A DNA stretch of 64,000 nt from Porphyridium purpureum (taxonomy: Eukaryota): NCBI GenBank assembly GCA_008690995.1, contig VRMN01000004.1, positions 1,302,001 to 1,366,000 on the forward strand, written 5' to 3'. The notes beneath the pieces were generated by a model. The model had not been told where the DNA came from. It ran no database searches and saw only the letters and a list, made by a program, of their open reading frames with translations. The position numbers and the translations under genes were made by a program. The first letter of the stretch is position 1. Each line of letters begins with the position of its first letter. This document shows, piece by piece, positions 13,853-63,900 of the stretch.

Positions 13853-16327
13853 ATGCGGTTGGCGCGCGCGGTGGGAGGCGGATGCGCGGCGTGGTGCGCG
13901 ACGATCCGACGCGAAGCCGACACTGCCGCGCTCAAATGGAGGGACGCGCGCGGCTGGAAGTCGAGCGCCAGCGCAAGCGCAGCGGCGTACCTGGCGGGCG
14001 TCGCTGACAGGATCACAAACCCGACAGACCTCGAGCGGCGGCGGGCCGCAGCGCGCACGCTCGACGAGCAGCTTCAGGCCGCGCAACCGGAGGTGCTGGA
14101 CGCCGCCGTTCACGCCTTTCTGCGATGCTCGCTGGAGCTCTCCGCAAAGGCGCCCCTGTACGCAACTCTTCTGGCGCTTCTCATGCGCACCGTCGCCAAG
14201 GGCGTCGAGTTTGTCGGACGCTTCTTGGGAGCCTTTCTTGGAACCCTTCACAATGTGCTCAGAGAGGGCGAGGCCGCAAGGGCCAGGCGAATGCTCCGCT
14301 TCATGGCTGAGCTTGTGAATGCGAATGTGCTCAACGCTAAATATTTCATGCACTTTCTGATCAGGCTCGTGCAGGGCTCCCACGCAGAGCACCAGATCCG
14401 GCCAAAACTTCACGCCCGCAAGCGGTTCTTGGCTGATATTGCGCTGTCGTGTCTACCTTGGTGTGGATCTGCACTCGTTCGCCTTGAGCCGGAGCTTCTA
14501 CATGAACTGACATCTCTGTCCAACTCTTTTCGTCAGATTTACATGGCAAGCCAGGAATGGAGCTTCTTGCGCCCCATGAAGCCTGACGGCGTTAACCCAT
14601 CTCGAACGCGTCAACCCGATGCTTCGGTACCGGGCGCGGTGCACTGCGAAGATCGGCTGCTGCTGGTTTTTCAAGCCGTTGACGAGTTAAGCAACAACAA
14701 CTGGGAATGCGCAGTTCCCCTAAAGCCTTACCGCCTCTTCGAGGCAGAATTAGCAAATGGGATGACGCTGGAACCCCCGACAGAAATCAGCATACCGCCG
14801 CACTCGCGCACCAGTCGATACTCAGCGGCAGAGTTCCTCTTCCATTTTGACCTTTCCCCAGCCGAGGAGGAAGAAGCCGGTGACAAGAAGCGGTTGAGTT
14901 TGGCCATGGAAAAGCTGGTCATTTCTGACTACGTGTGTGATATTTTGGACAACTTTGGCGCAAATTATCAGCTTGGAGTGGAACGTTTTCTGCAAATCCC
15001 GACACCGTACTATTATAAGCATCGCGTGGTGGAGACTGTGCTTTCCACCATGCTGGCGCTGCCAAGAAGCAAGTCGCCGCTTGTCTACTATGGCGTGAGC
15101 CTTGCTCACGCCTGTCGCGTGCGTGGGGGAGGCGTGCCCTTCCCCTTGATGAATTGCACAGAACAGCTGTACCTGCACTGCGCTGAGTTGGACGCGGAAG
15201 TTTTCGATCGGTTTGCCGAATGGTTTGCGTATCATCTGAACAACTTTCAATTCCAGTGGAACTGGGAGGACTGGGTTGATGTGACGGAAGACAAGGCAGA
15301 CGACGCAAATCGAGGCAGTCATGCTCGACCATTTAAAGCGCTCTTTGTGAAGATGGTGCTTGATCGTCTGACACGGCATGCGAGTCTTGAGGAAATCAAG
15401 GGAATTTTGCCGGAGGAGCTGCACCCTCTTCTGCCGCCAAAGCCTGAGCCTGACCTCGATATGTTTGGACAGGATCCGCAAGTGCAGAGTTTGCGAGGGA
15501 TAATTACGGGTAAGGGGAAGCTGGAGCTTGACCAAGTACGTGCAGAATTGTACGAAGCAACTGCTCGCTCAAACAGCGTGTATCGGTTTTGCTTGCTGGT
15601 GAAGGCGTTGCTCCTGGGAAGCATGAAAACGTACAGCCACTTTGACATTATTTCAGAAAGGTACATGCCCCTTCTCCGTGAGCTGGCGCTCGCAGCTGGC
15701 GAGACCGGCCAGGCTGAAGCGATTAGTATTGCGCTCCGATTTTGGCGGAATTCTGCTCAGAACTCGTGTTTTATCTTAAACCGATTCAACTACTTGGGCA
15801 TTATTCCAGACACCACGACTGCGACCACGCTTGTGCCCGTGGGCCATAGCGACATGGATCCGAACGAGCTTCAGGCGATGCTGTACCGATTCGAAGTGTG
15901 GGAATATTTGCGTGAAATCGTCCTGCGGAACGCACTAGCGCTAGATCGTGCGAATCGGGAGGTAACAATAGCGGCCTATGCTGCAAACCATGCCACTGAA
16001 GGCGAAGCGGAAGCGGCGCTCGCGGCTTTGGATTCGGCGCGGAGCGCGCAAGAACAATGCAGAGTGAGTATTCAAAATATCCTCCTAGTGGTTCTGTCGC
16101 AGCTGTTTGCCTTGTATGCTGTCATCCTTCGCTCTCTACCGGAGAATAACAGTTCCCGGGCAGTGCTGGTGTGGCGCGTGCGCGGCATGATCATTGAATT
16201 CGCGCGGAAAACGCCTGATACAACCTCGGCAATTTTGCCGCGCATTCAGTACGCCCAGGATTTGGTTGAGCTGCAGCGGTGTATCGATGAGTTGCATGTC
16301 ATCAGTGAATGCAATATTTTGGAGTGA
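13853..16327 (+). CDS. NCBP1: Nuclear cap-binding protein subunit 1 (CBP80)
   Basis: MIF4G-like KAPLYATLL and FDRFAEWFAYHLNNFQFQWNWEDW. Start uncertain; first in-frame ATG is at 13853. Confidence 0.9.
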   Translation: MRLARAVGGGCAAWCATIRREADTAALKWRDARGWKSSASASAAAYLAGVADRITNPTDLERRRAAARTLDEQLQAAQPEVLDAAVHAFLRCSLELSAKAPLYATLLALLMRTVAKGVEFVGRFLGAFLGTLHNVLREGEAARARRMLRFMAELVNANVLNAKYFMHFLIRLVQGSHAEHQIRPKLHARKRFLADIALSCLPWCGSALVRLEPELLHELTSLSNSFRQIYMASQEWSFLRPMKPDGVNPSRTRQPDASVPGAVHCEDRLLLVFQAVDELSNNNWECAVPLKPYRLFEAELANGMTLEPPTEISIPPHSRTSRYSAAEFLFHFDLSPAEEEEAGDKKRLSLAMEKLVISDYVCDILDNFGANYQLGVERFLQIPTPYYYKHRVVETVLSTMLALPRSKSPLVYYGVSLAHACRVRGGGVPFPLMNCTEQLYLHCAELDAEVFDRFAEWFAYHLNNFQFQWNWEDWVDVTEDKADDANRGSHARPFKALFVKMVLDRLTRHASLEEIKGILPEELHPLLPPKPEPDLDMFGQDPQVQSLRGIITGKGKLELDQVRAELYEATARSNSVYRFCLLVKALLLGSMKTYSHFDIISERYMPLLRELALAAGETGQAEAISIALRFWRNSAQNSCFILNRFNYLGIIPDTTTATTLVPVGHSDMDPNELQAMLYRFEVWEYLREIVLRNALALDRANREVTIAAYAANHATEGEAEAALAALDSARSAQEQCRVSIQNILLVVLSQLFALYAVILRSLPENNSSRAVLVWRVRGMIIEFARKTPDTTSAILPRIQYAQDLVELQRCIDELHVISECNILE

Positions 16328-23826: not shown

Positions 23827-24997
23827 TTAAGACGTCATGTACGAGCTGACATCAATCTTCTCCGGTAGCTCCGGCACCGCCACGGCAAAGCGGCTCTGCA
23901 CCTCATTCAGCACTTCAACTTCTTCTTCCGTCGCTACAAACGAGACGGCGAGACCCTTGGTACCAAATCTGCCCGCCCGACCAACGCGGTGCAAGTATGA
24001 ATCGGCGTCCGGGGGCATATCATAATTGATCACGATGTTCACGCGCTCAATGTCAATCCCGCGACCAAAAAGATCTGTCGAAACCAAGATGCGCGCTTGG
24101 AAGTCTTTGAAGGCACGGTACCTCTTGATGCGCTCTTCCTGATTCAGAGTGGAATACATCGCAATCGAAGGAAAGTTTGACTCGTTCAAAACCTTGTTGA
24201 GCGCTTCCGCACGCTGCCCGCTTTTCACAAAGATTACCACTTGGTTGAATTCAAGTGCGTCGAGCAAATCGTTCAGCTTGCGGTTTTTCTGTGCCTCGTC
24301 CAGCTTCAAGTAGTACTGCAACAAGCCGTGCAGGGTCAATTTGGAATCATTGTCTACGATGACCTCCAAAGGATCCGTCATAAAATGCTTGGCGCTCTCA
24401 CGCAACGTAGCACTCAAAGTCGCAGTGAACATCATCACTTGCTTGTTGGCCGGAGTCGCCATGAAGATCTGCTGAACTTGTGGCCTCATTCCTGCTTCAA
24501 GTACACGGTCGCACTCGTCCAGTACGAAAAATTTGACCTTGCTGAGATCAACGTACTTTCGCTCGACTAGATCAGCCATGCGACCTGCGCTACCCACCAA
24601 AATATTGGGAATCGCAGCCTCTAGCTTCTCTTTATCCGCCTTGACCGGAACCCCACCAAACACGGCCATCGTACGGATGTCTTTGAGGTACTTGCTGAAT
24701 CGGTCAAACTCGGCCTTAATCTGGTACGCGAGCTCACGAGTGTGACCTAGCACGACGCAGGAGATGGTGTTCTCTTCAGGTTCGAGCTGCTGGAGTACAG
24801 CGAGACAAAACACCGCCGTTTTGCCCATGCCCGACTTGGCTTGGCAGAGAACATCCTGTCCCACTATCGCCTGAGGAATGCACTCGTGCTGAACCTCGGA
24901 TGGATGCTCAAAGCCGCAATCCTGAATCGCGCGGAGCAGCTCTGGTTTGAGCAAAAAGTCACGGAAACCAGCTGAATGCACGCCCACATAAGCACCT
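23827..24997 (-). CDS. UAP56: DExD-box RNA helicase UAP56/SUB2, exon 2
   Basis: [27 protein letters not shown] and [10 protein letters not shown]. Acceptor CAG ends at 24998. The spliced product is 434 aa. Confidence 0.95.
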
Positions 24998-26455
24998 CTG
25001 TGATGTTCATGGAAGCCAAATCATGCCGTCGTGGAAAGAACATGATGCAGAGACCCACAAGAACAAGCCGCGGAAAATTAGAAATCGCAGCAACGCGATC
25101 GACACAGAATCACAAAATCAAAAAATAAAAAAGTCAGGAGTTGCCGGATTAGTAACATGTTCACATCATCTTCGTCTTATCACACGTGACAATGGCAAAG
25201 ACTGAAATGACTCACATTGCGCACCGCTGACCCCGCCGACGACAAGAATGAGCTGGACAATACGGAACAGGGGCCAGGCAGGTCATCTCAAATGATCATG
25301 CGAAAGCAAGTTTGCCAGGCAATGTGGCTGCCTCCACGGAAACTGGCTTGCGAAGGGGACCTGATTTTTTCTGAAAATGAGCACTCGGCAATACTGCTGA
25401 GGCCGGATGCGACTGACGAGCCCCGAGGAATCTATGCACACGAAAAATCATCTTTCAAGCGTCTGTCATGCCAAGAATATGGGCAGCTCCCATCTCTTCC
25501 CGATGGACAAGCAACCAATTCATTCGTGAGCCTAGACATCCCAAGGAAGCACACAGAGATGGGCTGAATGGAGACCTTTCAGATCACCTCTGCAGAGCAA
25601 GAGCAAGAAATCAATCTCTCGTACATAAATACCAACGGTGCTGGATCTGAGCAACCAGGCACGGTCGAAACCTTTCCAGTACCACGGCTCGCGTCACGGA
25701 AGTTCCCCGGTCGCAGAAAAAAGTCCCCAGACACAAAATCAGAGAGAACAACGCCGTGCCTGCTCACCAACAAATTTCGAGAGAGACAAAAGGGGTGACA
25801 CTGCACGAACAAGCTGAAGACGCAAGTATGCCGTCGCTTCCTTCATTCTTCTCTCTTCGCCTGGAGGCCCCCAAATGTAATTCAAACACAAGGCGTTGGA
25901 GAGATTGTTTCCTGATAGAAATCCTCCTCCTGATGTCCCAATCAAGCTCATTCTTGTCCGGATAGGGCCAGAGATCCTAAATGACGAGATTTGTAGTCCA
26001 GCACGCCGCAGGAGCCACGAGGAAAAGAATAGAAAAAGAAAATAGGAAAGGCAGAGAGAGACCGAACCAAGGACGGTCGCTTCAAACACGGAGTGCGCTT
26101 GACCGCTGAGACCTCTTGAGAACCGGTTTGCGCCTAGTCCCTTCCCACTGCACGTTTGAGTACACGCCGCGCGCGAGTGAAAGCGACCAAAGCGGAAACG
26201 AACAGAAGGAGAATCGCTCGCGCCACACTCCTCCCGGCGAGGGCACGGGCCCGCCACCACGAGGCCAGTCTCTCGAGCCAGTCTCCGACCCGATCACGGG
26301 CCTCAACTCGCCCGGAACGAGCCTCCCCATTTGATTAAGACCTCCGAAGTCGGCCACCGCCGAGCTCTCTGGTCGCAACCGCGCGCCGTCGCTGCGGGGA
26401 ACCCGCAACGAGTGAAAACTTTCTACAACAGAAATATCCCGTCTATCTTACGTAC
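24998..26455 (-). other. 1458-nt phase-2 spliceosomal intron of UAP56
   Basis: Donor AA|GTACGT at 26455 and acceptor CAG|A at 24998 join to give ...[18 protein letters not shown], the conserved UAP56 sequence. Confidence 0.9.
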
Positions 26456-26589
26456 TTATTCCCCGACTTGGCGTCGGCCGGTGCATCGGCCTTGGAGGCT
26501 GCCGCGACCGGCGCATCCTCTTCTTCCTCGTAATCGACCAGGTCATCCTCCTTCACCGCGGCCTTGGCCACGCCGTTCTCCCCCGCCAT
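26456..26589 (-). CDS. UAP56: UAP56/SUB2 exon 1
   Basis: MAGENGVAKAAVKEDDLVDYEEEEDAP..., carrying the conserved UAP56 N-terminal LxDYEEE motif. Not in the ORF track. Confidence 0.9.
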
Positions 26590-27108
26590 GGTTCCGCGCG
26601 GCACCCGTCGACAAACTCCCTGCTTCTCACGAACGCCGTGCGGAAAGCCTCAGTTGCCACGAAACCGTTCCGCCCGTAGCCACCACAGTCGCTGTCGCTG
26701 TCCAAGCCTCACTCCCCCGCCTCTTCGCCTCGTACTCTGTCCGCACCGCGATTCTGCCGTGCTCCGTTGGTGCGCTCGTGTGCTATTGAGAGCCCGCACT
26801 GCCTGGGCCGAAGCTATGCGCGTTGATAGTAAAAACGGCTCGTTTTGCTAGACGACGCGCGCCAGTTGCGCGGTGTGTGGTGCACTCATCCGCGTGGAGG
26901 TGTACAGTATGGCTCTGTGTACAGTTTCACGTTTGCGGGGAGGTTTTGCGTGCCGTGAGAAGGAGCGGGAGGGTGAGGATGCAACAGGGAAGGGACATGA
27001 GCTGTGGGGAAGCGAGCGACGGGTGGGGAAAGGACGGGAGCGAGAGAGGGACGGGCGCGCGCGAGGGACGGAACGCACAGGGGAGTGGTTTGGAGAGGGC
27101 GCGCGGTC

Positions 27109-27674: not shown

Positions 27675-28793
27675 TCAGTAGTCAGCGTAAAATATTCGGT
27701 CTAGGCACAGTCCCCTTGCCGGCGCGGCCTTGGGAGCTATTCTGCGGTCTCGAGCGCCTAAGAGAACGTCAATGTGCTCTGGTGGCATGTCGTGCCTGGC
27801 CACATGCAGTGCAGCGCCAATCATATTCCTCACCATCTTGTACAAGGCACCCTGCAGGTCTACTTCGACGGTCATCAAACGGGGATCTCGCTCGTCGCGT
27901 ATCACTCGCACGGAATGCACTGTGCGAACGGGGTTCCGGACAACTTCTCCGTGACTTAATCTATTCGCGAATGAACTAAAGTCGTGCGTTCCCACAAACC
28001 TCTGCAGGGCCGCTTCGAACAAATCTGTATCGCACGCTTGATATTCATGGTGTCGATATAATCGTTCAAGCGGATCCATACACGTCGCGAACATGATTTT
28101 GTACGAGTAGATCTTGTGCTGCGCGCAGTAAATGCTGTGCCAGGGTTTCAATCGCTCGCCACTCGGGAGCTTGACCAGCGATGGTGGCGGTGCCACCTCC
28201 ATGCGCAGCACCTGCAGATTGGCCGGAAGCATCCGATTTACCTGGAATTCGAGGCGCGATAATCCTGACGAATCATCCTGTTGCAGATCCTCCTTTGGTA
28301 TTTCCTCAGGAATATCGAAGTGCGCCACCTGCCCGCGCGCATGCACACCAGTATCGGTACGCGATGCGCCCACAACGCGCGTAAATCCGTTCAGCCTCCG
28401 CGAGAACACTTTTTCAAGCGTGGCCTGCACAGAGTTGCGAGTGTTGATTTGATACTGCCAGCCTCGAAATTCAGTTCCATCGTACGCAACTGTCATTCTA
28501 CAACGATAGGTCTCGCCACGCAGTACACGAGCCTCCGTCTCTGACCACAAGCTCCAATCTGCGTCTGCAAGATCCGACTCGATTTGGCCTGCATCAATCA
28601 CGCAAAACATCACCGCACGCGACTGAACGGTTGACGAGGCCGGCAGTGGAATGTTTAGAGGTCTGATCGACCGTTGGCCGTAGCAGAAGGCTCCTGATCT
28701 AACGACTCCGCCGCGACCATCCGCACGTGCATTTGAGCTGCGTCGCTGCTGCCACGCCGTCGTGACGACAACAAAGCCAGGCCTGGAAACCAT
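27675..28793 (-). CDS. truA: tRNA pseudouridine synthase A, probably organelle-targeted
   Basis: VAYDGTEFRGWQ, GASRTDTGVHARGQVAHFD, GTHDFSSF, LYKMVRNMIG and AAPARGLCL motifs; transit-like N-terminus. Confidence 0.92.
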   Translation of the reverse strand: MVSRPGFVVVTTAWQQRRSSNARADGRGGVVRSGAFCYGQRSIRPLNIPLPASSTVQSRAVMFCVIDAGQIESDLADADWSLWSETEARVLRGETYRCRMTVAYDGTEFRGWQYQINTRNSVQATLEKVFSRRLNGFTRVVGASRTDTGVHARGQVAHFDIPEEIPKEDLQQDDSSGLSRLEFQVNRMLPANLQVLRMEVAPPPSLVKLPSGERLKPWHSIYCAQHKIYSYKIMFATCMDPLERLYRHHEYQACDTDLFEAALQRFVGTHDFSSFANRLSHGEVVRNPVRTVHSVRVIRDERDPRLMTVEVDLQGALYKMVRNMIGAALHVARHDMPPEHIDVLLGARDRRIAPKAAPARGLCLDRIFYADY

Positions 28794-31177: not shown

Positions 31178-32032
31178 ATGTCCGACGCTAGGCCAGATCA
31201 AGATGATGCCCAAGAAGCGAGGGCACTTGAAGACGTAGAAGCAAATGAGCTGGCGCGCGGCGTGGTGCGCGAGCGGGCAGTTTGGGTCGAGCAAGCGCAC
31301 GGCATTCTTCTCCTGCGCTCGCATGTGGTTGGTTTCGGAATGTTAAGCTTGAGCAGAAGGCTCACCAAACCTTCCAGCGCGGGCAGGCGCGGAAAGAAAG
31401 GTGGGCGCCCGACGCACGGAGTCATGGAGGTACCTGAGAATGAGCACTTGCAGCTTACTTTGGAGGAAGCGTACTACGCCGCATTCGAGGCACGTCTGCT
31501 CTATATCTTTGGGATTGAAGACCCAGCAAAAGCATGGTTGGAGGAAGACTGTTGGGCGCAGTTCTGCTCTCTTGACTCGAACTTTCCCATGGCATTCGCT
31601 GCGTACTACAAGTACCGGAAAGCTGGCTGGGCACCGCACAGCGGACTCAAGTACGGAGCGGATTATGTTTTGTATGATCACCGGCATCTCATGAAGACCA
31701 AAGCTCATCATGCTCATGCACCTTACTGTGTGCGCCTTGTGTACAGGAGAGAGGATGAAGCCGACACCACCGTGCTCGCCGAGTCGGCACCCAGTCTTTA
31801 TGGTACGCTGCGGGTGACACATAATGTCGTCAAAAAGCTCGTCTTGTGCCTAGTTGTATATCCAGTGTCCGGTGGGCATCTTCGAAGTGCTTCAGACGCA
31901 CGGAGCTGTATCTCCGTCCGTGAACTCATGTTTAGAAGGTTTGTACCGACCAAGCATCTGACACCAACATGGCAAGAACTGAAAAAGCGACAGAAAATCG
32001 AAGAGCGCACGATCAAAAAAGCCCAGAAATAG
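31178..32032 (+). CDS. SEN2: tRNA-splicing endonuclease subunit Sen2
   Basis: EHLQLTLEEAYY, YRKAGW.PHSGLKYGADYVLY, HAPY and KKLVL motifs. Confidence 0.85.
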   Translation: MSDARPDQDDAQEARALEDVEANELARGVVRERAVWVEQAHGILLLRSHVVGFGMLSLSRRLTKPSSAGRRGKKGGRPTHGVMEVPENEHLQLTLEEAYYAAFEARLLYIFGIEDPAKAWLEEDCWAQFCSLDSNFPMAFAAYYKYRKAGWAPHSGLKYGADYVLYDHRHLMKTKAHHAHAPYCVRLVYRREDEADTTVLAESAPSLYGTLRVTHNVVKKLVLCLVVYPVSGGHLRSASDARSCISVRELMFRRFVPTKHLTPTWQELKKRQKIEERTIKKAQK

Positions 32033-48991: not shown

Positions 48992-50420
48992 TGACCAAAT
49001 CGGACAGGGGACAGTACGTTTTTCAAGGTTCACTAGCAAAATGATCTGCTTTACTATAAAAGGGAAAGAGGTCCGGTGAAAAGGGAATGTGGAATAGGTC
49101 GAAACGGATAGGGGACACGGCATATTTCTGGCCATTACTCAGCCATAGAGAATCGGAATTGGTCGCGGTTTCCTTGCACGTACGCGCCTTGAAGATACAC
49201 ACAGTCGAATATTCGTTTCGGCAGCGACGCGTACAAATTGGCCATCACAGGCTGGTCCAAACTCTCCCAGGCCAGTAAAATGGCAAACTTGAGCTCCAGC
49301 ACCGTCTCATACTGCCTTGCACCCTCGTAAACATTGCACGCTAGTATCCTCCACAATTTCTCGATGATATTAAAGTCCGGCGAATACGCTGGCCAGTCTA
49401 GGAGCTCCACATTCTCGTCATTCATGAAATTCTTAACCAGGCGACTTGTGTGCACTGGCGCGTTATCCTGCTGAAAAACCATGTTCGGGCCCACCATCTG
49501 ACGGCAGCGGCTCAGCACGTTGTTCTCTCGAAGCATGGAAACATATTTTGCAGCCGTAAATGACCCCTCAATAAAATGAAGGTGAATCTTTCCTCTTGCA
49601 GAAATTGCACCCCAAACCATGCATCCACCGCCGCCGGAATGTCGCGACCAAACGTATGGAACGTCCGCCGCACGCTCAACACACGTCTTGTGGAAACCAT
49701 CGGGTCCGTCCAGGTTGAACTTCTTTTCGTCAGTGAACACAATTGCGGCCCAATTCGCCTGTTCCAATTCATGGTGCCTGGCCGAGGCCAGCCTCTTGAG
49801 CTTGCAATTAAGTATCAGTGACAGACAAGCTGGAATTATGCGGTATGCATACGTGTCACTCACTGCCTTGATGATTGTTATCAAACGTTGGACAGGTTTT
49901 GCTCCACAAATTCGCAGAGCTGCTTGGAGCTGACGAGCCGTGTGAATGGTCGGAAGCTTAGCAATGTTGTAAATCTTCGTTTTGACCGCCTCCGTCAGCT
50001 TTAAAGCGTTCACATTGGCATATTTCTGGCAGTACTCGTTTGGAGCCGACAAATAGCTGAAAACCACGTTCTTAGAGCGCCCAATTTTGGTCGCAATGGC
50101 TCTGACGCTGTTGCCCGACTCTGGGAGACCCTGAAAACGTCCTTTCTCCTCGCCTGTAAGGCCAATCTTGCGCCCCATGGAGTCAAAATGGAGCTCGTTA
50201 CGAGCTGCGATGGATCCGCACTTTTCCGCTTACACTGAACCGCCGACGTCCGAGATATTTCGCTTCCACGCAGTGTCCCCTATCCGTTTTGAGCCACAAA
50301 TTTCGTCGTAACCGTTGCAGACGAACCCCACCGTTCTACTTTCATAGTAAAAGATCAAACTTTACTATTAATGAACTATTTTTTCTGAAAGTTTTGATTG
50401 TCCCCTGTCCGATTTGGTCG
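48992..50420 (-). mobile_element. Tc1/mariner DNA transposon with IR/DR-type ends
   Basis: Perfect 21-bp outer IR at 48993-49013/50399-50419 and 17-bp inner IR at 49102-49118/50273-50289. TA follows the right end; the left flank reads TG. Confidence 0.88.
49135..50178 (-). CDS. Tc1/Tc3-like transposase, DD34E
   Basis: N-terminal HTH, then VFTDEKKFNLDGPDG, FQQDNAPVH and WPAYSPDFNIIE (34 residues between D2 and E); uninterrupted 347 aa. Confidence 0.93.
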   Translation of the reverse strand: MGRKIGLTGEEKGRFQGLPESGNSVRAIATKIGRSKNVVFSYLSAPNEYCQKYANVNALKLTEAVKTKIYNIAKLPTIHTARQLQAALRICGAKPVQRLITIIKAVSDTYAYRIIPACLSLILNCKLKRLASARHHELEQANWAAIVFTDEKKFNLDGPDGFHKTCVERAADVPYVWSRHSGGGGCMVWGAISARGKIHLHFIEGSFTAAKYVSMLRENNVLSRCRQMVGPNMVFQQDNAPVHTSRLVKNFMNDENVELLDWPAYSPDFNIIEKLWRILACNVYEGARQYETVLELKFAILLAWESLDQPVMANLYASLPKRIFDCVYLQGAYVQGNRDQFRFSMAE

Positions 50421-58026: not shown

Positions 58027-58037
58027 GGTTATGAGCC
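58027..58037 (+). promoter_or_regulatory. Primer-binding site GGTTATGAGCC (internal/half tRNA-iMet type)
   Basis: Immediately follows the LTR; same type as the copia/Ty5 PBS. Confidence 0.8.
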
Positions 58038-60921
58038 TAGACGCGATGGCGTTTACGTTTGATGCGTCGAAGCTGTCCGCGCTTGCGAACGGCGTGGAAA
58101 AGTTCAATGGCGAGAATTACGACATTTGGGCACGCCGCACGAAGCTCGCGTTGCGTGTGGTGAAGCTGTGGCCCGTCGTTGCGGGGATGGTCGTTCGCCC
58201 ATCGTCGTCGTCGCGTGCAACTACCGGGATGACGGCAGAAGAGTGGGACGATGCGGACCTGGCGGGACAGTTCTTTCTGTCCGGGGTCTTGGAGAACAGG
58301 TACGACCGTCTCGTCCGCGATAAGTCGTCGGCGGACGGTTGGTCCGCGGTGGCGAATTATGCGCACGATCAACTGTCGGCGCAGAAGTTCGCGTTTCGCA
58401 TGGCGCTGGAGCGCATTGTCCAGAACAAGAACGAGGCAATGGCCGAGTACTTGGATCGCGGAATCGGTCTGTGGGACAAGCTTGTCTCGATCGGTGAGCA
58501 AGTTCCCGAGGACCATGTCGTGCGTTATCTGGTGATCGGGCTCCGCAAAGAGTTTCAGGGGTCGAAGGACTACCTGCTGCATTCGGCGCCCACGGTCTCC
58601 GCAGCTCGGCTGCAACTGCTCCAGCTGGAGGCCGGAAAAGCGCTCGAGCGCACGTTGGCAGATGAGCCCCCGCCCATCGCAATGGCGGTGTCCCAGCGTC
58701 CGCAGCAACAGCAGCGTGATCGCTCAGCGGGTGTCGTGAAGACGGCACTCGTCAAGGAGAACCTGAAGTGTGGCTACTGCCACAAGGTTGGGCACGAGAC
58801 GAAGCGTTGCTTTAAGCGCAAGAATGACTTGCGCGACAAGGCTGCTGGTGCGAGTGGCGCAGCAGACCCGGAGGCAGTGAAACGCGGCATCGGAAAGCCG
58901 AATGCGCGGGTGAATGTGGTTCAGGTAAAAACCAAGGTGACGAAACCACCGGCTCCGGCGGCAAAGGCAGCCATTGAGCCAGGTTGGATGTCGTGGGAGG
59001 CCTACGCGAATAGCGTTGCGGGAAGGGGCGTGGTGCCAAAAGGCCCTTCTCTGGATATCCGCATGATTAGCCCCCCAGCGACCCCTGCACCAATCAATAA
59101 AGCCACCACTTCCATCTATGCCATCTGTGTCTCTGTTGTGCCCCACAAGCACAAGTCGCACAAATGGATGTTCGATTCTGGATCGGACAGACATATCACT
59201 TGGGATAGGTCTATTCTAATGAATGAAAGACCTTCTGATGAATCACTTGTTACTGTTGCCAACGGGGAACATGTTGAAGTTTCATTGATGGGTGATGTCA
59301 TGCTCAAAACAATTATTCAAGACAAGTTTAATGACTTGCGTCTTGAAAATGTTTTGTTGATCGAAAGCACACCCATAAATCTCCTTTCGACAAAGGTCGC
59401 AGCGAGAAAGGGCTGTGTCTTCAAACACGATGATAGTTCATCTGTTTTGCATTTTGGGTCAGATGGGCCCGTCCTAGCGGTTGGGGATGGTGATTTAATG
59501 ATCAAACTATCCGCCGCTAGAATAAATGCAATCACAGCTTCAAATAAGTTTGAGCTATTTCACCGTCGACTTGGTCATCCTGGACTTGCTGGTCTGAAAA
59601 ATACGCAAAATTGTGTACAGGGAATTCCCGCGGACTTAAAAGTTCCGGATGAATACCATTGTGTGATTTGCCAAAAGGCAAAGGGAACACGAACTCCCTT
59701 TAAGAAGCGGAAATTGAATTCCATTTCGGCGGTTCCGGGAGAAGTCCTTCATACTGATGTATGCGGACCACTCACTCCTTCGAGTTTTGACGACCATCGA
59801 TATTTTCTAGTTGTCGTCGACGAATGCTCAAGTTTGAGTGTCGTCCACTTGCTCGAGCGAAAAAGTGAAGCGGGTGAAATGTTACTGCGCACACTTAAAT
59901 ATCTCGAAACGACTCTTGGTGCAAAGGCAAAAAGAGTTCGGTCCGACAAAGGTGGCGAATTCGCAAGCCTTTATGTGCAAAGGCATCTCCAAGACTCTGG
60001 AATTACTTGGGAAAATACCTCTGCTTACACGCCAGAACTTAATGGTATGGCTGAACGCATGAATCGGACATTACTCGAAAAGGTTCGAAGCTTATTGTTT
60101 GATAGTAATCTACCTTTGGAAAATTGGAGTAATGCTTTGTTGACTGCGAATTATTTGCGAAATCGCATTTCAAATAATCGCGGGAAAACGCCGATAGAAA
60201 TTGCATTCAGGCAAAGGCCAGATCTCAGCAATCTCAGAATCTACGGATCGAGAGCGTTTGTTCATATTCCTAAGCAATTGCGAGGAAAACTAGAAACAAG
60301 ATCTGCAATTGGATGCTTGGTCGGTTATGGAAATGTCCATTCCGTTTATCGCATTCTTCTATCGGATGGCACGGTCGTTGAAAGTCGAAATGTCACTTTC
60401 GATGAGTCTGTCGTTGGAATAGATGTTCATGAACATGAAATCCACGATTCGGAATATTTTTCCAACTTCGATAAAATTGTCGAAGAGTTGTTTCCAAAAG
60501 ATTTCTCGAAGTCGTTTGATGAAAAGTCTCAAATCGCGTCAAAAAATTTTGAAACAGATTCCACTCGACAAATGGATGATCGCAGTCAGGAATATTCTAT
60601 TTCAAATGAAATCGGAGAAACGTTTCTGGAAAAAGTTCAGAATAATTCGAAAGATTTAGGGTTCCAAAAGGCTCCAAATGGAAACTTTGGGAATACTGAG
60701 GATGACGAAAGTCAAGACAGTGGATATGTCGCAAATCAATTCGTTGGAATAATTTCCACCGTTTCTGAACCTCGGTCAGTCGAAGAAGCACTAAAGGGTG
60801 ACTTCTCTGAGCAATGGCTGGAAGCTCTGAATAGAGAATTGGAATCTCTCACTGGCAAATGCACGTGGGAGCTCGTCGATCGTCCACAGGACCGAATTCC
60901 TGTCAGATGCAAATGGGTTTT
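58031..60921 (+). CDS. Copia gag-pol, truncated (frame runs on into the inverted LTR to 61063)
   Basis: FNGENYDIW, CGYCHKVGHETKRC knuckle, FDSGS protease, HRRLGH/CVIC, LHTDVCGP, RSDKGGEF and NGMAERMNRTL. Confidence 0.9.
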
Positions 60922-63900
60922 TATTAAAAGGTCTGATGTATCGGGGAGTCTTTGTGACTTGTCACTAACGCAGTTGCGTGTCCCCTTCGTCGCCCTTGCA
61001 ACTAACCTTACCTTCGTCATCCGGGGACTCCGAGCCTCGGCCATCGCTAAGCTCTTCATATAGGCAATCGTAGTGCTTTCACTAGTGAGATTGCCAACTG
61101 TACCTCCAGGGCAAAAACCCTTATTTACTATAAGTTGGAGAAATACAGAAAGTTGGAGAAATACAGAAAGTTGGAGCTGAAACATTCCCCATGGTATTAC
61201 TACTTTACCTGGGGAGGGAATCTACCGAAACCCTGGATTCATAACACTCCCACGCAGCGACAACTTTTCGTCATGCCTTCCACCTCTATCTCGAATTTTC
61301 AAGACAAGCAACACCCAATAAGGTTTTGCATTTCAAAAACATTTCTCGAGGAACCACTTTGGTTAGGAAATCTGCTGCCTGATCTGATGTGCGAATGTAA
61401 ATAGCCTTGACTATTCCCCGTTGCTGACATTCGCGAGCATAGTGCTTTCTCACGTCAATGTGCTTCGACCTTTCGTGCACAATCGGGTTCTCACTCAGTT
61501 TCAGTGCAGCATCATTGTCACAAAACATTGGAATCGATTTCGACTTGAATCCTAGGAATTCCATGAGATATTGAAACCACTGGGCTTCTTTACATGCATC
61601 CGAGAGAGCCATGTACTCTGCTTCGGTTGTGGACAGCGCCACAGTTGGTTGTAGCCTGGATTTCCAGGAGACAACTGATCCATTGATCGTGAAAGCATAT
61701 CCGGTGGTTGACCTTCGCGTTCGAAGATCACTAGCATAGTCTGAATCAACGTAACCAATTAGGTCGGAGTTGCCATTTGAGCTAAATTGGAGACCATAAT
61801 TTATGGTTCCTTTAAGATATCGCAGCACTCCCTTTGCCGCATTCCAATGGGATTCATTGGCATTTGCCATTGATCGTGCAAGCACTCCCACGGCGAAGGA
61901 AATATCCGGACGCGTGCAAGTGCACAAATACATTAGTGCTCCCACGAGTTCCATGTAAGGCATCTTGCATGGTTCTGCAGTAGCAGTATACCACTTCGTA
62001 TCCTTTTCCATGGGAAGCTTCCTTGGATTCGCCGATTCCATTCCGAACCTTTCCAGGATGGTTTGGACATACAAGCTTTGATTAAGTCTGATAATGCCAT
62101 TCCTTTGATCATAATCAAGAGTGTAGCCGGCAAATTTTTGCTTGACCACTTGCCCAAGATCCCTGACTTCAAACTTGCCTTGCAAATGCAGAAGCACTTC
62201 ATTTGAAGTAACTTCGTCTTCACCTATGAAGACCAAGTCATCGACGTAAATCATGATATACGGACCATTTGGACCCTTAGAAAACAGACAAGGATCTGCC
62301 GTACTTTCGGAAAAATTGATTTCTTTAAGTGCTTGCACAAGAACTTGATTCCAAGCTCGAGATGCCTGCTTCAATCCATAGATTGCTTTACGCAGTTTCA
62401 GGACTTTTCCTCCTTCATGTACGAATCCAGGAGGCTGTTCCATGAAAATTTCTTCATGAAGTTCTCCATTGAGAAACGCAGTCACCACATCGAAAAGTCG
62501 AATTTTCAACTTTCTTGCAGCTGCTACTGCCAGGACCGTTCGAATAGTGTTGTGTCGCACAACAGGGCTGAACACTTCGTCGTAGTCCAAACCAGGTTTC
62601 TGAGTGAAACCTTTTGCGACAAGTCGACACTTGAACCGATCAATTTGTCCGTTGACATTATATTTGATCTTAAAAACCCATTTGCATCTGACAGGAATTC
62701 GGTCCTGTGGACGATCGACGAGCTCCCACGTGCAGTTGCCAGTGAGAGATTCCAATTCTCTATTCAGAGCTTCCAGCCATTGCTCAGAGAAGTCACCCTT
62801 TAGTGCTTCTTCGACTGACCGAGGTTCAGAAACGGTGGAAATTATTCCAACGAATTGATTTGCGACATATCCACTGTCTTGACTTTCGTCATCCTCAGTA
62901 TTCCCAAAGTTTCCATTTGGAGCTTTTTGGAACCCTAAATCTTTCGAATTATTCTGAACTTTTTCCAGAAACGTTTCTCCGATTTCATTTGAAATAGAAT
63001 ATTCCTGACTGCGATCATCCATTTGTCGAGTGGAATCTGTTTCAAAATTTTTTGACGCGATTTGAGACTTTTCATCAAACGACTTCGAGAAATCTTTTGG
63101 AAACAACTCTTCGACAATTTTATCGAAGTTGGAAAAATATTCCGAATCGTGGATTTCATGTTCATGAACATCTATTCCAACGACAGACTCATCGAAAGTG
63201 ACATTTCGACTTTCAACGACCGTGCCATCCGATAGAAGAATGCGATAAACGGAATGGACATTTCCATAACCGACCAAGCATCCAATTGCAGATCTTGTTT
63301 CTAGTTTTCCTCGCAATTGCTTAGGAATATGAACAAACGCTCTCGATCCGTAGATTCTGAGATTGCTGAGATCTGGCCTTTGCCTGAATGCAATTTCTAT
63401 CGGCGTTTTCCCGCGATTATTTGAAATGCGATTTCGCAAATAATTCGCAGTCAACAAAGCATTACTCCAATTTTCCAAAGGTAGATTACTATCAAACAAT
63501 AAGCTTCGAACCTTTTCGAGTAATGTCCGATTCATGCGTTCAGCCATACCATTAAGTTCTGGCGTGTAAGCAGAGGTATTTTCCCAAGTAATTCCAGAGT
63601 CTTGGAGATGCCTTTGCACATAAAGGCTTGCGAATTCGCCACCTTTGTCGGACCGAACTCTTTTTGCCTTTGCACCAAGAGTCGTTTCGAGATATTTAAG
63701 TGTGCGCAGTAACATTTCACCCGCTTCACTTTTTCGCTCGAGCAAGTGGACGACACTCAAACTTGAGCATTCGTCGACGACAACTAGAAAATATCGATGG
63801 TCGTCAAAACTCGAAGGAGTGAGTGGTCCGCATACATCAGTATGAAGGACTTCTCCCGGAACCGCCGAAATGGAATTCAATTTCCGCTTCTTAAAGGGAG

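Follow-up and report, generated by a model that had tools for sequence, protein, structure and literature searches.

In yeasts, a long-range stem can shorten a long intron or act as a splicing enhancer. A zipper stem comprises at least 6 bp and is linked to the donor and the branch point by 42-85 nt in total (PMC12350175), and autoregulation of yeast RPL7B proceeds by disabling such a zipper-stem enhancer (PMC12311795). Pre-mRNA of yeast YRA1, which encodes an mRNA-export factor, is decayed via Edc3 and Mex67 (PMC2864733), and splicing of intron 6 of human DDX39A and DDX39B depends on the level of these proteins themselves (PMC11317157). Splicing factors of the poison-exon/AS-NMD type make a stop-bearing isoform in which a junction lies far downstream of the stop. 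These statements reflect the accessible parts of the respective sources. A literature search that covered few subscription papers found no report on the intron of red algal SUB2, which is the subject of the present analysis. We propose that the intron of SUB2/UAP56 in Porphyridium purpureum is ancient and folded, undergoes unproductive splicing and probably acts in dosage control via a predicted stem over an internal donor, a combined reading that we hold tentatively and with slightly less than even confidence.

The gene lies on the minus strand of the window, by which we mean the whole 64,000-nt stretch of DNA that was analysed, and its two exons (26589-26456 and 24997-23827) encode a DECD helicase of 434 aa. 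The annotated SUB2 of P. purpureum (P0001) has the same length, and the part of the product encoded by exon 2 is 100% identical to it over 389 aa. The domains PF00270 and PF00271, the DECD motif in the translation and the placement in the tree assign the protein to the UAP56/SUB2/DDX39 family. The gene is composed as follows:

26456-26589, minus strand: exon 1, coding, 134 nt from the ATG, ending in phase 2
24998-26455, minus strand: intron of 1458 nt with donor GTACGT and acceptor CAG (GT..AG, phase 2), junction present in RNA contigs
26443-26445, minus strand: in-frame TAG that, as read from the sequence, is met by the retained and the internal-donor forms (48-aa peptide)
25210-25215, minus strand: internal donor GTGAGT, used in RNA (joint 24997/25216 in run X4)
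23827-24997, minus strand: exon 2, with the DEAD and helicase-C domains up to the stop, assigned by identity to P0001

RNA evidence was drawn from four runs from four studies, out of 20 runs containing the stretch (24 listed). One of the four is recorded as RNA and three were guessed to be RNA; all consist of assembled contigs and were evaluated for the region 24600-26900. Contigs lose rare forms, and a missing joint is therefore not proof of absence. The full junction 26455-24998 was present in three of the four runs and, together with its GT..AG ends and phase 2, substantiates the 1458-nt intron postulated by the first-pass annotation of this DNA. Intron sequence was covered in all four runs and the stretch upstream of the transcript (26756-26900) in none of them, which argues against DNA carry-over as the source of the intron cover. 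The 5' end of the transcript is located near 26700-26720, with RNA contigs ending at 26653-26721. In run X4, a second joint, 25215-24998, with exact GT..AG ends (CT..AC as read) was detected in one contig at a depth of 3.8, in this one of the four runs. Site 25215 had been predicted from the sequence before the RNA was examined and proved to be a used donor. Its use removes a mini-intron of 218 nt (25215-24998) and extends exon 1 by 1240 nt. Because a single continuous contig of X4 spans 25216-26485 beside this joint, the second form represents an alternative donor with an extended exon 1 and not a cassette exon. The contig word depths of full splice, internal donor and retained 3' part were 5.9, 3.8 and 8.1 in X4, 191.5, none and 139.9 in X1, and 5.4, none and 14.1 in X11, suggesting that spliced and unspliced SUB2 RNA are comparable in order of magnitude, although contig depths are rough and cannot rank parts of the gene.

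The SUB2 intron is thus represented by three RNA forms (full splice, internal donor and retention), two of which are unproductive and stop after 48 residues. Read-through of the donor, as anticipated, soon meets a TAG (26445-26443), after K-Y-V-R and four codons into the intron. In the internal-donor form this stop precedes the exon junction by 1227 nt, so that a stop-bearing splice isoform as in AS-NMD autoregulation does exist. An exon junction far downstream of a stop is the usual mark of an NMD target; the retained form has no exon junction at all, since the gene has one intron. In the accessible part of a supplement with gene trees, P. purpureum is found in the trees of UPF1 and UPF2 and is missing from that of UPF3 (PMC5880011). 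The earlier idea of an unproductive isoform therefore survives in altered form: a stop-bearing form occurs in RNA and its donor lies within a predicted stem, but it arises from an alternative 5' site, next to retention, and not from a cassette exon.

Some further observations were made in the RNA runs. A coverage gap at 26231-26248 in run X3 was not counted as a finding. In run X11, one of the four, the piece 25410-25647 reached a depth of 40 compared to 13-14 on both flanks, and a 59-nt contig ended on the first 30 bases of this piece. The lengths fit a joint leading back from 25647 to 25410, as in a 237-nt circle or a tandem copy, with ends that are not GT..AG. Six single-base differences between the runs are all intronic (25463, 25730, 25733, 25775, 25821 and 26003), and four of them are common to X4 and X11, which points to a second strain. 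None of the six is located in the arms of the predicted stem, where only about 0.5 would be expected, so that this count is uninformative; four of the six disrupt predicted pairs elsewhere in the intron.

The following additional elements of the intron were located by motif scans and folding predictions:

25000-25169, minus strand: AG-free zone of 170 nt before the acceptor (p=0.0003, 3000 shuffles)
25148-25154, minus strand: likely branch point TACTAAT according to the motif scan (alternatives at 25139 and 25083)
25211-25268, minus strand: 3' arm of the predicted stem (core 25254-25241), the outer end of which pairs GTGAG of the internal donor
25935-25988, minus strand: 5' arm of the predicted stem (core 25958-25945), overlapping the unused acceptor-like AG at 25978-25977
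25977-26079, minus strand: pyrimidine-rich AG-free run of 101 nt ending with the acceptor-like TTTAG, a possible decoy at which no joint was seen

A distant branch point had been suggested for this intron and is indirectly supported by branch-like motifs inside the 170-nt AG-free zone. These motifs are situated 151, 136 and 80 nt before the acceptor, with TACTAAT (25154-25148) at 151 and TTCTAAT (25083) at 80. The 170 nt without AG before the acceptor are in themselves an argument for a distant branch point, and an AG gap of this length was found in one of 98 tiles of the window. Judging from the motifs, the branching adenosine is most likely the one in TACTAAT at 25154, which lies at a distance of 66 nt from the internal donor. 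Folding of the stretch between branch point and acceptor did not exceed chance (z=-0.01).

The first-pass annotation had also listed several long-range complementary segments, and this holds for one helix. The perfect 14-bp helix 25958-25945/25254-25241 exceeds the length expected by chance (p=0.003, 600 shuffles) and was matched in none of 41 window tiles of the same size, the longest helix of which had 12 bp. Helix counts, on the other hand, equalled those of 100 shuffles: 15 vs 13.0 Watson-Crick helices of at least 8 bp and 13 vs 15.1 helices of at least 12 bp with GU pairs allowed, with no excess at any length tested. This was an outcome that the earlier annotation had set beforehand as speaking against its proposal. 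The other inverted repeats, 26287/25337, 25907/25612 and 25762/25656, were rejected, as their pair probability in the ensemble was about 0. The 14-bp core has pair probabilities of 0.97-1.0 in the ensemble at 25 °C and extends to about 46 predicted pairs between 25988-25935 and 25211-25268, with pair probabilities of 0.82-1.0. The best-duplex energy of the stem was borderline, with p=0.02-0.03, 0.115 and 0.75 under a loose, middle and strict length penalty, respectively. At the outer end of the predicted stem, GTGAG of the used donor pairs with the nucleotides immediately preceding the acceptor-like AG at 25977. An alternative, looser duplex, 26413-26262/25362-25210, is predicted to be mutually exclusive with the stem and would likewise cover the donor at 25215. 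However, 68% of the intron bases are predicted to be paired and the internal donor ranks merely at the 14th percentile of accessibility, so that a covered donor is weak evidence when taken alone, and internal donor-like motifs occur in the intron in chance-level numbers. Folding of sub-regions gave z=-1.9 for 25200-26000 (20 shuffles) and z=-2.0 for 26000-26455; in view of these values and of z=-0.01 behind the branch point, we do not claim a downstream stem. Rfam and tRNA scans of the intron returned nothing, with the best Rfam hit at E=0.045 and 18 bits compared to the 120 bits needed for the gathering level. Helices that hide an unproductive site, as had been postulated, are thus supported by a predicted stem built on one significant helix, but most helices are at chance level and no conserved internal donor was found in three orthologues.

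The genome of P. purpureum is intron-poor, with 245 introns according to the row of supplementary Table S5 that was accessible (PMC5880011). The SUB2 intron had been called the only one among about 23 genes in the window. The long open frames do look uninterrupted, but RNA was mapped to 24600-26900 alone and the claim is not confirmed; in a motif scan, 15 intron-like signals were counted, compared to 23.5 in shuffles. Nearby genes related to RNA processing encode a MIF4G-type (CBP80-like) protein, a tRNA pseudouridine synthase and a tRNA intron endonuclease (13853-16327, 27675-28793 and 31178-32032). The right end of the window carries a Tc3/DDE transposase (49135-50178) and two facing frames of copia-type retroelements (58031-61063 and 61286-63715).

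The survey of orthologues comprised 80 loci, three of which (L004-L006) are red algal with the intron in question; 11 others were read and the rest were screened for motifs. L004, L005 and L006 are genomic SUB2 genes that group with florideophytes in the tree, and their intron agrees with that of P. purpureum in codon and phase, with lengths of 440, 442 and 579 nt. The donors are GTACGC or GTACGA, and all three introns end with GAAG, a non-YAG acceptor (AAG), compared to CAG in P. purpureum. Among 137 database proteins, of which 91 fitted neither of the patterns tested, 20 open with residues read from the intron, the last of which is an R that immediately precedes G-x-Y-V. Of these 20, 19 fall among the red algae in the tree (18 labelled rows and P0123), and they include rows identical to P. 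aerugineum and Erythrolobus. One transcriptome-type record, P0015, has a protein that begins with intron-read residues, which hints at retention of the intron in another red alga. Outside the red algae, two AT-rich loci (L039:650-690 and L067:725-775) carry a phase-2 intron of very small size at the corresponding point of the N-terminal tail, so that the intron position may predate the red algae. In five loci of green algal type (L017, L027, L071, L076 and L077), a short intron in phase 0 precedes this place by a few codons.

No shared sequence was found among the four introns of P. purpureum and L004-L006 (pairwise p 0.29-0.94), and multiple alignment fails. A 12-mer common to the introns of P. 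purpureum and L006 was dismissed, being at chance level and not collinear. Under the loose score, long-range duplexes in L004, L005 and L006 reached z=-4.2, -6.0 and -5.1, values of -4 or below being found in one of 25 flanking tiles; by the strict score and by the longest helix, the duplex was significant in two of the three (L004 was not significant under the strict score, p=0.19). Folding of whole introns gave z=-2.3 in L005, -1.0 in L004 and -2.8 in L006. The AG-free zones of L004, L005 and L006 measure 89, 46 and 80 nt (p=0.03, 0.17 and 0.02), and an internal donor-like motif is absent in L005 and at chance level in the other orthologues. Conservation thus appears to concern the position, a length of more than 400 nt and folding over a long range, and not the decoy donor. 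Effective distances from donor to branch point were mixed in comparison with shuffles (29 vs 64 with 8 shuffles, 23 vs 27, 13 vs 25 and 58 vs 33 in the four introns) and were rejected as evidence. An Rfam scan of L004-L006 gave zero family matches. In L004, the 9 bases with which the true donor begins are repeated 130 nt into the intron (L004:3690-3705), and a complementary run able to pair with either copy follows. The motif TTGTCTCTC occurs in the looped-out part of three of the four introns (window 25790-25778, intron positions 163-175 of L004 and 199-215 of L006; p=0.04, uncorrected) and may be a decoy pyrimidine tract.

From these data we derive the following model. The stem of about 46 bp would loop out about 670 nt, thereby shortening the path from the true donor to the distant branch point, and would also pair with, and hence cover, the internal donor at 25215. 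If the stem formed in time, the full intron would be removed and Sub2 would be made. If it remained unformed or was opened, the internal donor, with its distance of 66 nt to the branch point, would win, or the intron would stay. Splicing of the 218-nt mini-intron would place a junction 1227 nt past the stop and mark the RNA for nonsense-mediated decay. The share of productive SUB2 mRNA would be set by how fast the stem forms relative to donor choice and export. By analogy with yeast YRA1 and RPL7B, Sub2 itself may shift this balance by unwinding the stem or by exporting the RNA before splicing. Dosage control is favoured by the persistence of the intron in an intron-poor genome and by its recurrence, with codon and phase unchanged, in three further genes from red algae; counting against it are the finding of the 25215 joint in one contig at a depth below 5 and the borderline energy of the stem. 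The boldest version, a helicase gauge, strikes us as rather doubtful: Sub2 would open or outrun the stem of its own pre-mRNA and expose the branch-proximal donor, the mini-intron junction behind the early stop would lead to decay, and the fold would have been kept across red algal classes while the sequence was fully turned over.

A plain zipper or fidelity stem is a serious rival to dosage control. According to this explanation, a long and old intron has acquired a zipper-like stem that joins donor and branch point and hides cryptic sites as a matter of housekeeping, a weak spliceosome produces retention and the 25215 joint by leakage, and the Sub2 level is not controlled. Long yeast introns often contain zipper stems and stems that cover cryptic sites (32 of 88 in the accessible part of PMC12350175), a stem and not the internal donor appears to be what the orthologues have in common, and red algal relatives generally splice poorly: in Cyanidiales, overall splicing efficiency is 42-50% and 85% of the introns contain an early stop, as far as the accessible part of that report goes (10.64898/2026.05.17.725761). 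Considering this low efficiency and the frequency of intronic stops, retention and the TAG of SUB2 need not be special. Predicted zipper linkers amount to about 80 nt in L005, which fits the rule of 42-85 nt, about 95 nt in L004, more in L006 and more than 500 linear nt in P. purpureum, where the stem begins about 470 nt from the donor and thus outside the rule. In addition, the predicted donor-to-branch distance relative to shuffles is not clearly shorter in L004 and is longer in L006. Housekeeping also leaves unexplained why a gene set so poor in introns has retained this one, and at such a length, and why the AG-free zone is long (p<0.05 in three of four introns). On balance we consider it unlikely, though not to be dismissed lightly.

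Positive feedback would assign a different role to Sub2, which would be needed to splice its own difficult intron with the distant branch point and folded middle, such that low Sub2 would cause more retention. Depletion of DDX39A or DDX39B does raise retention of their own intron 6 and re-expression rescues splicing (accessible part of PMC11317157), and the distant branch point as well as the weak AAG acceptors in all three orthologues are in line with such a dependence. The human intron, however, occupies another position in the gene and requires a C-rich tract (PMC11317157), and we regard positive feedback as improbable. Still less credence is given to the cassette exon of the first-pass annotation, in which helices cage a poison exon, starting at 25976 or 25589 and ending at 25768 or 25216, until they are opened by the helicase or by heat and the exon is included. 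In the stem as predicted, the acceptor-like 25977 is paired with the donor 25215, the two ends of a stop-bearing 761-nt candidate exon, a pyrimidine-rich run precedes 25977, and the possible decoy tract TTGTCTCTC lies in looped-out parts. Nevertheless, no joints at 25977, 25767 or 25590 were seen in any of the four contig runs, from which rare forms may have dropped out, X4 is continuous across the region, and the motif scan of the intron found no CTRAY branch motif upstream of 25977. The 374-nt and 761-nt candidate exons do contain stops; the 209-nt piece 25976-25768 is without an in-frame stop, contrary to what had been claimed, and its inclusion would shift the frame and lead to a stop in exon 2. 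The run at 25977-26079 is 73% pyrimidine (p=0.08) and was matched by 11 of 98 control tiles, and high exon conservation was not observed, with no significant pairwise match to the three distant orthologues compared. Human DDX39B introns host snoRNAs, and a hosted non-coding RNA, snoRNA-like or circular, could likewise keep the SUB2 intron long, with the stem as its processing frame. The piece of X11 with three times the depth of its flanks would agree with this, but the depth step is confined to one of four runs, neither the P. purpureum intron at gathering level nor L004-L006 matched an Rfam family, and no shared sequence was found among the orthologues; we regard a hosted RNA as the least probable of the explanations.

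If dosage control by the stem and the internal donor is true, it would explain why one intron survives, and survives long, in a genome that shed nearly all others, and SUB2 would offer a compact system for asking whether a DExD helicase reads its own activity through an RNA fold. As P. purpureum is transformable (accessible part of PMC6110788) and the gene has one intron in which the stem and both donors are mapped, reporter tests would be direct. Even without feedback, long-range stems at one red algal intron position would extend the idea of zipper stems beyond yeasts.

Among the described systems, poison-exon/AS-NMD splicing factors resemble SUB2 in that the gene of a splicing factor yields an isoform whose stop lies well ahead of a splice junction; P. 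purpureum differs by using an alternative 5' site instead of a cassette exon and by having no ultraconserved sequence. With human DDX39A/DDX39B, SUB2 shares the protein family and, potentially, splicing of an own intron that depends on the protein level, but in the accessible part of that report a different intron is concerned, a pyrimidine tract and not a long-range stem is involved, and the feedback is positive and thereby opposite in sign to the model of the first-pass annotation (PMC11317157). YRA1 is an mRNA-export factor of the same pathway, and its intron-containing RNA is controlled at the levels of export and of decay in the cytoplasm; it is another gene with another intron, its pre-mRNA is not decayed by NMD, and an internal donor within a stem is not described in the accessible part of the source (PMC2864733). 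The stems of S. cerevisiae are similar in that a long-range stem shortens a long intron and stems cover cryptic sites (PMC12350175, in part), while in P. purpureum the stem lies at the distance from the donor given above and the branch-to-acceptor stretch is not folded above chance. RPL7B combines a long-range intronic stem, a non-consensus branch point and an unproductive outcome proposed to depend on the own product, all of which find a likeness in SUB2. In RPL7B, a conserved alternative structure binds Rpl7 and the feedback has been shown (accessible part of PMC12311795), whereas in P. purpureum SUB2 no conserved sequence was found, the predicted stem lies over an internal donor that is used, and the gene encodes a helicase.
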